A stretch of DNA of 64,000 nucleotides from a virus. The position numbers and the translations under genes are program-made. The notes beneath the pieces were generated by a model, which worked only from the letters and a program-made list of their open reading frames with translations, did not search any database and was not told the DNA's origin. Below, piece after piece: positions 29,449 to 33,635 of the stretch. Where the stretch lies: positions 1 through 64,000 of the IMG/VR virus record IMGVR_UViG_3300002092_001594. One strand, given 5' to 3'. How positions within the stretch are numbered: position 1 is the stretch's first letter; every line of letters starts with the position of its first letter.

Positions 29449-30330
29449 CTAATCATTCTTTTTATCACATAATTCCAGCTTGTCGATATAAGGACAGAAC
29501 TTGCATTTATCTATATTCTTAGGATACTTCTTTTCCTGGTATTCTCCTTCTACTGTAAAAGCATCTTTAACGAAATTCTGAATATCTTCAAAAGCATCGT
29601 TTACTTTCTTAGTACCGTTTGCTGGTTTAAACTCTTGTACTCTCTTAGGGGCAAACTCTAAATTCTCATTGATTTTCCTACGGACTATAAAAAACTGTAC
29701 GTCTATCTTGTCTTCTGGTATTCCTTTTAAATTCGAAAAGAATTTCTTATAAAGAAGTATCTGATTAACCTTTACTTGATCTTTTTTCTCATAATCAGAC
29801 CAACCTCTTGTTGAGGTCTTGATATCGTAAATGATATACTTATCTAAAGCTTTATCGTAGATAACTAAGTCAATAAAGCCTTTCATAGTAACTTTATCGT
29901 AACCTTCTACGATAGGTCCTGTAATAGGAATTTCTATACCTATAAGCTTGGAGTTCTTCTTACTAAAGAATAAATTCCTTTTGCGTTTAAAAAACTCTAA
30001 GATAGCTACAGCATCTTCGTAGAACTCTGATAGCTCTTGCGGAGTAGAGAAATGGCCTGCATGAGCATTTGCTTTATACAGCTCCATTAGCTTAGTCTTA
30101 AAATAGGTAGGAAGATGTATCTTATCTGCTTCAGTAGCAGATTTATCAAACATTACTTGAAGATAGTTTTGTATTGTTTCATGAGCAGCAGTTCCGAAAA
30201 TTAAATGTATTGATGGTTTAAAGATTTTTAAGCCTCTAGCATATTCTAGATACCATCTATAGTTACACTGTTTATATACAGCATATTGGCTATAGCTAAC
30301 TGTCTTACTCTTTACTTTTTTCTTTTCCAT
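29449..30330 (-). CDS. PD-(D/E)XK RecB/Cas4-like exonuclease
   Basis: SYSQ..C, FGTAAHE, GFIDL, DIKT, Q..LY, C..CPY...C. Confidence 0.88.
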   Translation of the reverse strand: MEKKKVKSKTVSYSQYAVYKQCNYRWYLEYARGLKIFKPSIHLIFGTAAHETIQNYLQVMFDKSATEADKIHLPTYFKTKLMELYKANAHAGHFSTPQELSEFYEDAVAILEFFKRKRNLFFSKKNSKLIGIEIPITGPIVEGYDKVTMKGFIDLVIYDKALDKYIIYDIKTSTRGWSDYEKKDQVKVNQILLYKKFFSNLKGIPEDKIDVQFFIVRRKINENLEFAPKRVQEFKPANGTKKVNDAFEDIQNFVKDAFTVEGEYQEKKYPKNIDKCKFCPYIDKLELCDKKND

Positions 30331-31010
30331 ACGTAACCTTTTAATGTTTTGGGTTTATCTAAGTAGTACCTTAGTAATCCTTTACTTAGAGAGTACCTAT
30401 CGCTTACTTCTTTTATAGACGTCCATTGTTTAATAATAAGGCCATCTTCATGACATTGTAACACTGTTACTGTACGTCTCTTTACTTTACTATAATCTGT
30501 ATTAGCTCTCCTCTTCGCAACGGTTTCAGAAGATTGCTTCTTTCCATACATTGAATGTTCTTTCCCTGGTTTAAAAGTAGTTCTATTAGATTTCATAACG
30601 CCTTTTGTATCTTTATTCCAGGAAGTTTGTAAACCTTTCTTTCCTTTGTTCCAAGGCACTCTTCCTTTTCTACTATCGTATAAATGTTCTCTATTAGGAT
30701 GGTTTGTAGCTAAGTCTCCTCCAGTACCTCCTTCAGTTAAATTATATCCTACCGGATATAAACTTTGATGCTTTTTTATGTAATCGATTTCTAGCTGATC
30801 TAACTGTTCATATGTTTCTGCTATATGAATTATTTTGACACTGAATTGATTCCATCCATGACTCTTTATAGCAGAGTACAAGGGAGATTTTACCTTATCT
30901 ACATTTCGCTTATGAGTTTTAATACGTTTCTCTAAGTTTTTTGCTTGTCCTATATAACACTTACTGTCTAGTAGATTAGTAATTTTATAAATAACATTAG
31001 TACCTTTCAT
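30312..31010 (-). mobile_element. GIY-YIG homing endonuclease with NUMOD3-type repeats
   Basis: VIYKITN..YIGQ..R..H, GYNLTEGG, PWNKG repeats, MYGKK.S.E. Confidence 0.9.
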
Positions 31011-31071: not shown

Positions 31072-31335
31072 TTACTTTATGTCTTTTTCTTCTAATTCCT
31101 GTTTAAGCTTTTCTAAATACAAAATACCGTCCATTAATTCTTGTTTAGCATGCTCAATCCAATCTAGTGTAGTTAAGTCTTTACGATCTAAATCAGTACC
31201 GTACTTCTCTTTACCAAACTGAGCTCTTTTGACAAACTGGTTAATAATAGAAGTAACTACTGTATCAGTAACGTAACCGTCTTCAAACTCTACAGGAGTA
31301 CTTGGATAGCTAAACTCTTTAATGTCTGTTTCCAT
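31072..31335 (-). CDS. All-alpha (MazG-like) dNTP pyrophosphohydrolase candidate
   Basis: G.EKYG...W.EHA.QELMD..LY. Confidence 0.55.
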   Translation of the reverse strand: METDIKEFSYPSTPVEFEDGYVTDTVVTSIINQFVKRAQFGKEKYGTDLDRKDLTTLDWIEHAKQELMDGILYLEKLKQELEEKDIK

Positions 31336-31553
31336 TATAAACCTAAGTTTTTAGGTTGGAACTTCTCGTTTACATAACCACACTTAGTACATGCAAAGCT
31401 TGGGATAGGAACTAAAGCGTCCTGATCTGTACCTGCAATAAACTTACTTACTTCGCGTAAGAAAGTTACTTGTTTAAAAGTTTCACATCCACACTCCTCG
31501 CATACGATAGGAGTAGTCTTGTCCATTGTAATGTTTAAATTCTGCTGTGCCAT
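31335..31553 (-). CDS. Zinc-ribbon protein
   Basis: CEECG...CTKCG. Confidence 0.7.
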   Translation of the reverse strand: MAQQNLNITMDKTTPIVCEECGCETFKQVTFLREVSKFIAGTDQDALVPIPSFACTKCGYVNEKFQPKNLGL

Positions 31554-31570
31554 ATTATTTATTTTATAAT

Positions 31571-31604
31571 TTAAATGTAAAATAAAAAAACCAATCTATC
31601 AACT
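31571..31604 (-). promoter_or_regulatory. Class I promoter overlapping the RNA-operon terminator
   Basis: AGTTG-N20-TACATTTAA. Confidence 0.65.
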
Positions 31605-31617
31605 TTTAGACTGGTTT
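31584..31617 (-). terminator. Terminator after the RNA cluster
   Basis: AAACCAGTCTA...TAGATTGGTTT plus U tract. Confidence 0.7.
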
Positions 31618-31622
31618 AATTT

Positions 31623-31785
31623 TGCTGTAGGAGAAGGACTTGAACCTTCACGCAGCGATTCGGAAAGTAACACAATGCTTGCAAGCAGGTGGTCAACCCC
31701 ATATTACTTTTCTATTTCGTTCTCTGCACCCTCGAGACGAGAGGGTGTGTCTGCCAGGCATCGATAGCCTTCCACCATCCTACAG
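31623..31785 (-). ncRNA. Expanded tRNA-like RNA (~160 nt) with a Leu-type body
   Basis: Acceptor (C)TGTAGGA/TCCTACA(G); T arm GAAGG-TTCAAGT-CCTTC; D arm GTG..GGCAGA-CAC with inserted hairpin; ~75-nt variable arm. Confidence 0.75.
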
Positions 31786-31789
31786 TATA

Positions 31790-32038
31790 CTAATAGACGT
31801 TATCTTCTTGGTCTATTCTAAAATCCAATTTAGTCTGATCAATTCTAGCTTGCTCTGCTTCTTTGTACCAGCGTATCCAAGTTAAAGATACATCGACTGG
31901 AGCTAATACCCAAGCCATAACTAATACCATAATAGCATCTAGTTCAGGAGAATTATATTCAGTTCCTGATCTTTTATATCTTTTGTTTAATTGATAAAAG
32001 CAATAGATAACACAAATAATGTAATAAGTCAAAAACAT
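31790..32038 (-). CDS. Small two-TM membrane protein within the RNA cluster
   Basis: Hydrophobic segments; similar layout to 4032..4322. Confidence 0.6.
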   Translation of the reverse strand: MFLTYYIICVIYCFYQLNKRYKRSGTEYNSPELDAIMVLVMAWVLAPVDVSLTWIRWYKEAEQARIDQTKLDFRIDQEDNVY

Positions 32039-32052
32039 AATAAATAATTTTG

Positions 32053-32137
32053 CGGAAAGCCAAGGATTCGAACCTCAGAACCTGTTACAGTTGCCGGTTT
32101 TCAAGACCGGTGCATTCAACCACTCTGCCAGCTTTCC
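32053..32137 (-). tRNA. tRNA-Ser(UGA)
   Basis: GGAAAGC acceptor, CCGGT-CTTGAAA-ACCGG, long variable arm, TTCGAAT; CCA not encoded. Confidence 0.93.
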
Positions 32138-32142
32138 AATAG

Positions 32143-32240
32143 GATGAGGTTTAGCGGCCAACTAAACAAAGTTACTACTTGCTCTCACCTCGAGTTACAC
32201 GTGACAGTTACGGGTGAATAGGGTTTCGTCAACACTCATC
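32143..32240 (-). ncRNA. Unidentified structured RNA A
   Basis: GATGAG/CTCATC closing stem, TCACC/GGTGA, GTTTAG/CTAAAC, possible TGACG/TGTCA pseudoknot. Confidence 0.55.
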
Positions 32241-32244
32241 TTTG

Positions 32245-32316
32245 AGCTCAGTCCCAGACTTGAACTGGGGATACAAGATTACAAATCTAGCGTTATACCA
32301 ACTTAACTAACCAAGC
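32245..32316 (-). tRNA. tRNA-Thr(UGU)
   Basis: GCTTGGT/ACTGAGC acceptor, loop TT-TGT-AA, CCCAG-TTCAAGT-CTGGG; one U-U mismatch in the anticodon stem. Confidence 0.85.
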
Positions 32317-32318
32317 AT

Positions 32319-32508
32319 TACAACTTTTATATTCACCTTCAGAGTTGTCAACTGTGCCTACACCGACGATTAGGAGCTATTAAGCGAGCAGATCTTACGG
32401 TATGCCACGGCTGTGTTTCGATCCCGTGTACTTAGGGCTAATTATTTAAAGGACACCTTTATTAGTTATTTAAACGTGAGAGGACGGAATCCGTAGCCCC
32501 AGCGTTCC
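32319..32508 (-). ncRNA. Unidentified structured RNA B (multi-pseudoknot)
   Basis: GAACG/CGTTT, TGGGGC/GCCCTA pseudoknot, CACGG/CCGTG, ATACCG/CGGTGT, ACAACT/AGTTGT. Confidence 0.55.
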
Positions 32509-32520
32509 TTAAATATTTTA

Positions 32521-32646
32521 GGAAAGTAGAAGATGGGTGCGTGGACATCTACTTTTACGATTGGCATTACTTTGGTATCGTTTAACCGCCTCACCCTATA
32601 CCGGCCCTTTCTACAGTTAAAAGGTATAGGGTTTCCCAATCAACCT
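32521..32646 (-). ncRNA. Unidentified structured RNA C
   Basis: GATTGG/CCAATC, CCCTATACC/GGTATAGGG, AAAGTAGA/TCTACTTT stems. Confidence 0.6.
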
Positions 32647-32650
32647 ACTT

Positions 32651-33056
32651 TGTGGAGACGCAGGGAATTGAACCCTGGTCTTGCGAAGTAATTATAATAC
32701 CAGCGTATCACACGTTTAGATCTACGTTTTAAGCTGATCAGTAGTGAAAGGGCCGTACAGTTAAGTACCAGCTACCACCACTTGGTTTTATGACTACCAA
32801 GAAACTCCCAGAAGGAGCAGAGCTATAATACTGAGACTATAGCGGGGTTTGTCACTTCTTTTTAAAGTCCCATGAGTGATACGGGATGTGATTAAGCAGC
32901 GTAAGCGTACTCATCAGCACCTACGAAAGACATTAAGTCTTCGAAGGTCATAGTTGACATTTCGTCGTTTGTTGTTTTGCAAGTATTTAAAGACATTCAT
33001 GCTTTGTCTACGTGTGGTACTATCCTTCTCATCGCAATCAATACCAAGTCGTCCCC
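32651..33056 (-). ncRNA. ssrA: tmRNA
   Basis: GGGGACG/CGTCTCC-A acceptor with G3-U70; T arm CAGGG-TTCAATT-CCCTG; tag ORF 32892..32966 ending YAYAA*. Confidence 0.93.
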
Positions 33057-33155
33057 ATATTTTAAAGAACTGTATTATAAATATATAAAAATATATTAAA
33101 AGACCTTTCTAACTACGTAGTCTTTGCAGGCCGGACACCCTGACGTGTTTTTCTC

Positions 33156-33365
33156 TTACTTAGAAGCTGAATCTAATTCTGCTTTTCTCTTTTTGTTTAA
33201 CTCTTTGTAGTAGTTAGTGTCTTGCTTTACTTCTGGAGTAGCTACACTTGTGTCTACTGTAGTAGAATCAGTACTTACTGTAGTTGAATCAGTTTTTACT
33301 TCAGTAGAAGTACCACCACATGCAGTTAAAGCTGCGATAGCAAACATTGCGATTACTTTTTTCAT
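33156..33365 (-). CDS. Small lipoprotein
   Basis: MKK-hydrophobic-LTAC lipobox; DSTTV repeats. Confidence 0.8.
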   Translation of the reverse strand: MKKVIAMFAIAALTACGGTSTEVKTDSTTVSTDSTTVDTSVATPEVKQDTNYYKELNKKRKAELDSASK

Positions 33366-33383
33366 CTTGTTTTCTTTTTTTGT

Positions 33384-33635
33384 TTATTTAAATTGCGATA
33401 ACACTTGAGTTAGTTGCGGCTTGGACATTACTCCAGAGTTTCTATAAACTACGTTTCCGCCATTCTCTACTATGATAGTAGGAACGCTTGACACGTTATA
33501 TCTCTGTGCCATATCTTTTTGTTGATCTACATCAATATAATTAATACCTACGCCCGTTTCTGCACTTACTGCTTGAACTGTAGGTTTGAACATCTTACAT
33601 GGACCGCACCATGTTGCTGTGAAGTATAATACCAT
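33384..33635 (-). CDS. trxA: Thioredoxin
   Basis: WCGPC and VPT motifs. Confidence 0.92.
   Translation of the reverse strand: MVLYFTATWCGPCKMFKPTVQAVSAETGVGINYIDVDQQKDMAQRYNVSSVPTIIVENGGNVVYRNSGVMSKPQLTQVLSQFK

Follow-up and report, generated by a model that had tools for sequence, protein, structure and literature searches.

The stretch of DNA analysed here (the window) corresponds to the initial 64 kb of the viral record IMGVR_UViG_3300002092_001594, a single contig of 115 kb with a completeness estimated by CheckV at 66%, and its minus strand carries an apparent single RNA operon (33100 to 31588) in which transfer RNA (tRNA) genes and tRNA-like genes alternate with small structured RNAs. 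From 33056 down to 31588, the minus-strand order is a transfer-messenger RNA (tmRNA; 32650..33056), RNA C (32518..32646), module X (32450..32509), RNA B (32317..32438), tRNA-Thr (UGU; 32245..32316), RNA A (32143..32240), tRNA-Ser (UGA; 32052..32137), an open reading frame (ORF) of 82 amino acids (31790..32038), a giant tRNA-Asp-shaped RNA (31625..31784), and an intrinsic terminator (31588..31617). A first-pass annotation of the DNA had already proposed this layout, and the tmRNA, both tRNAs, the embedded ORF, the giant tRNA-like RNA, and the terminator were all found on the minus strand. The non-tRNA modules number four (C, X, B, and A) instead of the three that it had counted; specifically, the 333 nt from the tmRNA to tRNA-Thr contain the three modules C, X, and B, with A/U-rich linkers of 10–11 nt between them. 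The GC enrichment that it had reported for the non-tRNA blocks was also recovered, with the RNA blocks at 42–52% (43% in RNA C, 45% in RNA B, 43% in RNA A, and 50% in the giant RNA) versus 33.6% in the genome and 31% in the 82-amino-acid ORF. The source is an uncultured freshwater phage, probably with a Bacteroidota host, because the PD-(D/E)XK nuclease of the record has its nearest relatives in Flavobacterium phages (44% identity) and freshwater and lake metagenomes account for the DNA sequencing runs in which most of the stretch occurs.

The operon appears to form a single transcription unit, because there is no internal terminator, one strong terminator stands at its end, and the region upstream of it is conserved. 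The closing terminator consists of an 11-bp stem, an 8-nt loop, and a T run, and no second convincing terminator besides it was found within 31300–33500. The conserved upstream region (33057..33100, minus strand), which was aligned with five related loci, includes a TATAAT-like hexamer at 33074–33079 (minus strand), and the arrangement TATA..ATACAGT..TCTTT..AATAT directly before the GGGG of the tmRNA is conserved in this alignment. The boxA-like element AGTTCTTTAAA, which had been pointed out previously, is present at 33061–33071 and is conserved in five of the six aligned loci (the window and four of its five relatives). Judging from this conservation, the region is a probable promoter with a short leader of the RNA operon.

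To characterise the modules, nine related loci were collected via a small zinc-ribbon ORF downstream of the operon. The searches for viral families were exact-word scans of IMG/VR, and the family sizes given below are lower bounds. Covariance models were built for RNA C (R1), the giant RNA (R2), and RNA B (R3), and a set of 151 sampled Bacteroidota genomes served as the bacterial comparison. When the window from 31400 to 33300 was compared with Rfam 15 at E ≤ 10, only the tmRNA and the two tRNAs passed, the best of the other matches scoring 12–23 bits against cut-offs of 33–70, and eight other loci carrying RNA C or RNA A yielded only tRNA and tmRNA. Modules C, X, B, and A were thus without a family even at this permissive threshold, as their first description as unrecognised RNAs had implied. 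Its further statement that the blocks are helix-rich found no support in the folding of single sequences, which was no better than that of shuffled sequences (z-scores of −1.4 to +0.6). The structures described here therefore rest on covariation in the comparison between loci.

RNA C is the most widespread of the modules. It is built of a closing helix P0 (AGG/CCU), helix P1 (UUGAUUGG/CCAAUCG), a variable insert at P2, and a P3 hairpin with a 10-nt loop, and the copy in the window scores 93 bits with R1. The 18-mer of P3 occurs in at least 119 IMG/VR contigs, and its loop, UCCACGCACC, is identical in all of the copies sampled via this 18-mer. Family members are between 75 nt (a minimal form) and 162 nt long, owing to the variable P2 insert. 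In an alignment of 52 sequences, 99.6% of the cells were paired and six of the 20 pairs changed on both sides, and no slid or shuffled control fold was comparable to the real alignment. R1 found a single copy in this genome; across the first 100 loci it gave 102 matches, which include tandem second copies of RNA C with the loop UCCACUGAACC. As a separate observation, the P2 position is filled in two loci (L107:900-1059 and L108:8642-8803) by an insert of approximately 85 nt with CAGCAGGGGAUUUGUAAACCCC...GACAAACACAGG, and the same words form a free-standing element directly after RNA C in L031 and L067. In L107 and L108, one RNA module seems to be nested inside another, judging from these shared words.

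RNA C was hardly encountered outside viral contigs. Across 185,579 species genomes of bacteria and archaea, its 18-mer occurs 12 times, against approximately 17 occurrences expected by chance according to our own arithmetic, and only two of the 12 are true copies, both located on short contigs (593 and 1,687 nt) of metagenome-assembled genomes. R1 gave zero matches in 150 other sampled Bacteroidota genomes. On these sequence comparisons, RNA C is a large phage-restricted family. A candidate resemblance to the GTPase-associated centre of 23S rRNA was rejected: when R1 was run with its filters off on E. coli rrlB, nothing was found at helices 42–44, and the only matches (E ≥ 0.67) lay elsewhere.

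The other three modules are represented by fewer sequences. RNA B comprises a 5′ hairpin, a multi-helix core, and a 3′ hairpin and scores 143 bits with R3; its conserved part (32317–32438) is shorter than the 190 nt first assigned to it. Its internal 24-mer occurs in 13 viral contigs, and a core stretch of approximately 40 nt is identical in all of the copies retrieved through this 24-mer. Among 11 distinct aligned sequences, six of the 27 pairs changed on both sides, and the 5′ hairpin was kept with three different sequences. R3 added copies in L051 and L088, and it did not find RNA B in the 151 Bacteroidota genomes. Module X, of approximately 60 nt, is closed by AGGA/UCCU around the inner hairpin ACGGAUUCCGU, and four distinct copies were found in viral contigs with differing neighbourhoods; one copy follows a tRNA end, and the other three are never followed by RNA B. 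RNA A is closed by GAUGAG/CUCAUC, with the inner helices CACC/GGUG and GUUUAG/CUAAAC, and is represented by eight distinct sequences in nine copies in viral contigs, in which three of the 21 pairs of the three-helix fold changed on both sides. In this phage, RNA A and RNA C (compared over 32138–32243 and 32560–32646) have the words GAAACCCUAU, AACUGU, and GGUGAG in common and in the same order. The idea that RNA A belongs, in divergent form, to the RNA C family was rejected, with R1 giving no match to RNA A at E ≤ 10 and the other RNA A copies lacking the shared words; local recombination or chance may account for them.

Among the related loci, the modules occur in different subsets and orders, and the tmRNA and the giant RNA are common to them. 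For example, of the nine relatives, RNA C is carried by L001, L003, L006, and L007, and RNA B by L001, L005, and L008. The comparison between loci shows that C, X, B, and A are RNA genes in their own right, mobile and with conserved folds, whose families are restricted to phages. The modules are conserved as discrete units in other phages, and they do not have the character of unconserved spacers.

The junctions between the modules and the tRNA-type genes are very short. As read from the sequence, 6 nt separate the tmRNA discriminator from RNA C, 3 nt the last helix of RNA B from tRNA-Thr, 4 nt the tRNA-Thr discriminator from the closing helix of RNA A, and 5 nt RNA A from tRNA-Ser. These junctions of 3–6 nt bear out the tight abutment to tRNA and tmRNA ends reported previously. 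None of the four tRNA-type genes (tmRNA, tRNA-Thr, tRNA-Ser, and the giant RNA) has an encoded CCA, and CAAA follows each of them. The same arrangement recurs in other phages. RNA A starts 3 nt past an upstream tRNA-type 3′ end in all nine copies (a called tRNA-Thr in six), RNA B ends flush with the downstream tRNA in seven of 12 copies, and both RNAs nearly always have a tRNA or tRNA-like RNA as the next element downstream. Of 100 copies of RNA C, 46 lie no more than 5 nt from the 3′ end of an upstream tRNA or giant tRNA-like RNA, 21 have a downstream tRNA no more than 9 nt away, and about half lack a recognised tRNA in the 15 nt upstream. The interpretation that tRNA processing punctuates the release of the modules gains from this comparison, in that tight abutment holds across families and not only at this locus, as far as can be told from the layout.

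We consider it likely that tRNA-processing enzymes cut stable phage RNAs free from one operon transcript and that the modules are RNAs acting in trans. In this scheme, a promoter just upstream of the tmRNA would give rise to a transcript of approximately 1.5 kb ending at 31617–31588. Host RNase P would generate the 5′ ends of the four tRNA-type RNAs by cleavage, and host 3′ processing together with a CCA-adding enzyme would complete their 3′ ends. Genes for a CCA-adding enzyme and for SmpB were searched for, and neither was found in the 115-kb phage record, which is 66% complete. The tRNA-type cuts would release RNA A, of approximately 100 nt, and C-X-B as one block, which a general endonuclease would split at the two A/U-rich linkers of 10–11 nt. 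The closing helices (AGG/CCU in C, AGGA/UCCU in X, and GAUGAG/CUCAUC in A) would guard the products from exonucleases.

Several of these RNAs are represented in RNA-level data. Metatranscriptome contigs from four runs in four studies cover the tmRNA, tRNA-Ser, RNA C, RNA A, and RNA B, with summed depths of hundreds to thousands in one run and of 0–10 in the flanking protein genes. The tmRNA has the deepest coverage of the stretch, and RNA A is matched by contigs from RNA libraries with 0–3 mismatches. The lack of cover on tRNA-Thr and most of X carries no meaning.

The principle of tRNA punctuation is familiar from mitochondrial transcripts and from MALAT1 and mascRNA, which are released by RNase P and RNase Z. 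In both, neighbouring RNAs are freed by cleavage at tRNA or tRNA-like folds, as proposed here, but those systems are organellar or eukaryotic, whereas the principle is read here from gene layout. A closer parallel is the tRNA cluster of phage T4, to whose stable species C and D RNAs the first-pass annotation had likened the modules. The likeness of layout holds: the T4 cluster runs tRNA-Arg, 1 nt, rnaD, 6 nt, rnaC, with segB embedded, and in both cases small non-tRNA RNAs (in T4, rnaC, or species 1, of 139 nt, and rnaD, or species 2, of 119 nt) lie within a phage tRNA cluster, with junctions of 1 and 6 nt in T4 and 3–6 nt in the window, together with an embedded protein gene (segB versus the 82-amino-acid ORF). 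Homology is another matter. With filters off, R1 and R3 gave no significant match in the T4 tRNA region (best E = 0.2), and blastn of the C-to-A stretch against that region returned only chance matches of 10–15 nt; T4 is therefore an analogy only. The present locus also differs in having four modules together with a tmRNA and a giant tRNA-like RNA, in cassettes shuffled among many uncultured phages. Two reviews continue to give the roles of T4 RNAC and RNAD as unknown (PMC3014915; PMC9697503).

Several points weigh against the release of stable trans-acting RNAs. The cuts between C, X, and B are not attributable to tRNA enzymes, there being no guiding tRNA there. Processing and stability are deduced from the layout. 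The metatranscriptome consists of assembled contigs, derived partly from relatives, in which DNA carry-over is possible, and it speaks to presence only, not to ends or stability. The promoter is a putative one, and the “class II” motif placed at 33077 in the first reading of the DNA recurs no more often than chance (8 matches versus 7.8 expected). The failure of single-sequence folding to exceed shuffled controls, noted above, counts in the same direction. The identity of the P3 loop of RNA C is due partly to sampling by the 18-mer, and divergent copies read UCCACUGAACC; modules X and A rest on few, similar sequences, those of X being too few and too similar for covariation. Finally, a search of the surroundings of RNA C gave no conserved gene for a protein partner: the best cluster is lineage-specific and occurs in 47 of 123 loci.

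The very short linkers between modules and tRNA-type genes, and the fact that neither a function nor a partner was found for the modules, would suit passive structured spacers as well, which would insulate the tRNAs, define their leaders and trailers, and be degraded after processing without any function of their own. We regard this as unlikely. Spacers need no fixed sequence, whereas RNA C keeps a near-fixed loop and junction in at least 100 contigs with differing flanks and RNA B keeps its approximately 40 identical nucleotides, with the reservation that the 24-mer used to retrieve its copies lies within them. Furthermore, the modules occur in different orders, roughly half of the RNA C copies do without a recognised tRNA close upstream, and RNA C and RNA A are deep in RNA libraries relative to the flanking genes.

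The cleavage required at the C/X and X/B linkers could also be supplied by the modules themselves, if one or more of them were undescribed self-cleaving ribozymes cutting where no tRNA exists. Small self-cleaving ribozymes occur near phage tRNAs, and RNA C has a suitable appearance, being a compact three-way junction whose unpaired nucleotides are highly conserved. Nevertheless, such an origin of the cuts is quite improbable, since no hammerhead, twister, twister-sister, pistol, hatchet, or HDV-like ribozyme of Rfam matched at E ≤ 10. A specific candidate, in which X and RNA B together would form a pistol ribozyme (RF02679), was rejected on the same search and on the distribution of its parts: the pistol-like GCCCUAAG at the start of RNA B is replaced in three family members (L001, L005, and L135), X as the supposed half of pistol P1 exists without RNA B in L067, L159, and L160, and RNA B occurs directly after tRNAs without X. 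That the modules are cis-regulatory leaders of downstream genes, such as riboswitches or protein-binding attenuators, is hardly credible: one lineage does have RNA C approximately 25 nt upstream of a conserved 93-amino-acid ORF (the cluster in 47 of 123 RNA C loci), but in the window RNA C precedes X, B, and a tRNA, not an ORF, and RNA A and RNA B nearly always stand before a tRNA or tRNA-like RNA.

The small RNAs are thus probably neither cis leaders nor antisense regulators. A role in trans rather than in cis is indicated by the variable element after RNA C, which may be a tRNA, another RNA module, or an unrelated ORF, depending on the locus. Antisense regulation is disfavoured because the phage genome has no complement of the P3 loop of RNA C and because C-X-B showed only chance-level similarity or complementarity to five Bacteroidota genomes. 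Trans-acting, protein-binding RNAs are favoured because the modules are compact, have very conserved unpaired nucleotides, are phage-restricted, and are mobile within tRNA islands. Tentatively, and with well under even confidence, we suggest that the four small RNAs might act as protein-binding decoys or scaffolds directed at conserved host machinery that handles tRNA or other RNA. It is possible, if doubtful, that RNA C, and perhaps B and A, constitute a new functional class of phage-only, trans-acting structured RNAs that would travel as mobile cassettes of tRNA islands and bind a conserved host protein so as to redirect or disarm it, for example a tRNA-targeting defence nuclease or an enzyme of RNA processing or decay. 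If so, the phage tRNA island would be a locus of RNA-based counter-defence or takeover, and not one of codon supply.

Since T4, phage tRNA clusters have been known to contain extra small RNAs, and the present locus indicates that the phenomenon is broad. Freshwater phages of the Bacteroidota type have a repertoire of interchangeable small RNA genes beside their tRNAs. The strong conservation of RNA C argues that many genes of phage tRNA islands, a substantial share of them, go unannotated. It also supplies defined consensus folds and constructs with which functional questions can be addressed. A published prediction of 10,006 anonymous candidate structured RNAs (csRNAs) drew on the same source of data, the viral contigs of IMG/VR, and includes tRNA-like candidates, one of which coincides with a tRNA-Asp call at a single site out of 27; no names or functions are given for such RNAs (PMC10690425). 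Some of C, B, A, and X may be included in that catalogue.

In addition to the called tRNAs, many phages have over-long tRNA-like RNAs of 104–124 nt on the flanks of RNA A, B, and C, with weak Rfam tRNA scores and no ARAGORN call. Examples are L018:1224-1347, L018:1409-1512, and L144:900-1016, and many loci have such RNAs with ..UAGUCAGGUGGCGGAAU...

The giant RNA at the end of the operon, which is shared with host chromosomes, poses a question separate from that of the small modules. It is 160 nt long, and RNAalifold on eight loci gave a cloverleaf in which 21 of the 44 pairs changed on both sides. The fold has a 7-bp acceptor (U1–A72, G2–C71, and G73), a D stem of 3 bp whose loop contains a hairpin, a 5-bp anticodon stem closing the loop UCGUCUC (anticodon GUC, C33, and U37), and a T arm, and the alignment places the extra length in a branched variable arm of approximately 76 nt, of class II type. 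Homologues in four loci were called tRNA-Asp by ARAGORN, and the copy in the window was not reported by the Rfam tRNA model. The acceptor, 3-bp D stem, 5-bp anticodon stem, 7-nt loop, long variable arm, and T arm are shared with class II tRNAs and tRNA-Asp (RF00005), and the anticodon GUC and discriminator G73 with tRNA-Asp. The giant RNA differs from these and from the class II tRNAs for Leu, Ser, and Tyr in its 160-nt length, its branched arm, the C33 of the phage copies in place of the universal U33, and the pyrimidine at position 37. With C33 and U37 in the window, a pyrimidine at position 37 in all 11 aligned sequences, and lengths of 132–181 nt, it does not have the features of a canonical decoding tRNA.

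R2 identified full-length chromosomal homologues of the giant RNA on large contigs in 13 of the 151 Bacteroidota genomes, with scores of 65–108 bits. These copies keep U1–A72, G2–C71, G73, G34-U35-C36, and C38, and position 37 is a pyrimidine; the chromosomal copies mostly have U33, and the phage copies have C33. By homology of sequence and fold, the giant RNA belongs to a chromosomal RNA family of Bacteroidota, of which the phage has a copy. No canonical tRNA was found within 1.5 kb of ten chromosomal copies, and in six of the ten inspected, a gene for an Lrp/AsnC-type regulator lies divergent from the RNA, 130–200 nt away (loci listed for this observation: L164 and L172-L180). In bacteria, the pair U1–A72 allows GatCAB to amidate the Asp carried by tRNA-Asn (PMC1635274). 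Together with G73, the GUC anticodon, and the AsnC-type neighbour, this pair suggested an Asp-charged, GatCAB-amidated scaffold for the synthesis of asparagine. This weak candidate was given no support by a first comparative test, in which GatB was present in 13 of 13 carrier genomes versus 12 of 13 controls and asparagine synthetase, in 10 of 13 carriers versus 9 of 13 controls, was no rarer in the carriers.

The tmRNA matches Rfam RF00023 over its full length (77.3 bits, model positions 1–374), its acceptor GGGGACG/CGUCUCC gives the pair G3–U70, and its tag frame ends in ...FVGADEYAYAA-stop, and on these three features (the model match, G3–U70, and a tag frame ending in ..AA-stop) it is a member of the tmRNA family. 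Its discriminator is the A at 32653, followed by CAA, and the CCA is not encoded. The long tag frame (32892–32996, minus strand) is conserved as a peptide in relatives, reading ..EMSTMTFEDLMSFVGADEYAYAA in the window and DEMSEMTYDDLMAFVGADYALAA in L007. In a close relative (L003), the tag is identical according to ARAGORN, and similar long tags occur in other relatives. Both tRNAs were called by ARAGORN and Rfam without an encoded CCA, tRNA-Thr at 58.5 bits and tRNA-Ser at 53 bits. The 82-amino-acid ORF inside the operon, taken from the ORF list, is hydrophobic by eye and matched no Pfam or PHROG family, and its homologous cluster was found in 27 loci carrying RNA C.

Two features flank the operon. 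Approximately 600 nt downstream, at 30312–31010 (minus strand), lies a gene for a GIY-YIG/NUMOD3 homing endonuclease, which recalls segB in the T4 tRNA cluster and may aid the shuffling of RNA cassettes. On the upstream side, two hairpins at 33098–33145 (minus strand), one CAGG..CCUG and the other AAAGAC..GUCUUU followed by Ts, sit between the preceding lipoprotein-like ORF and the promoter region of the tmRNA. They may represent a terminator or a further small element, and they are approximately 86% identical in L005 despite the diverged tmRNAs.

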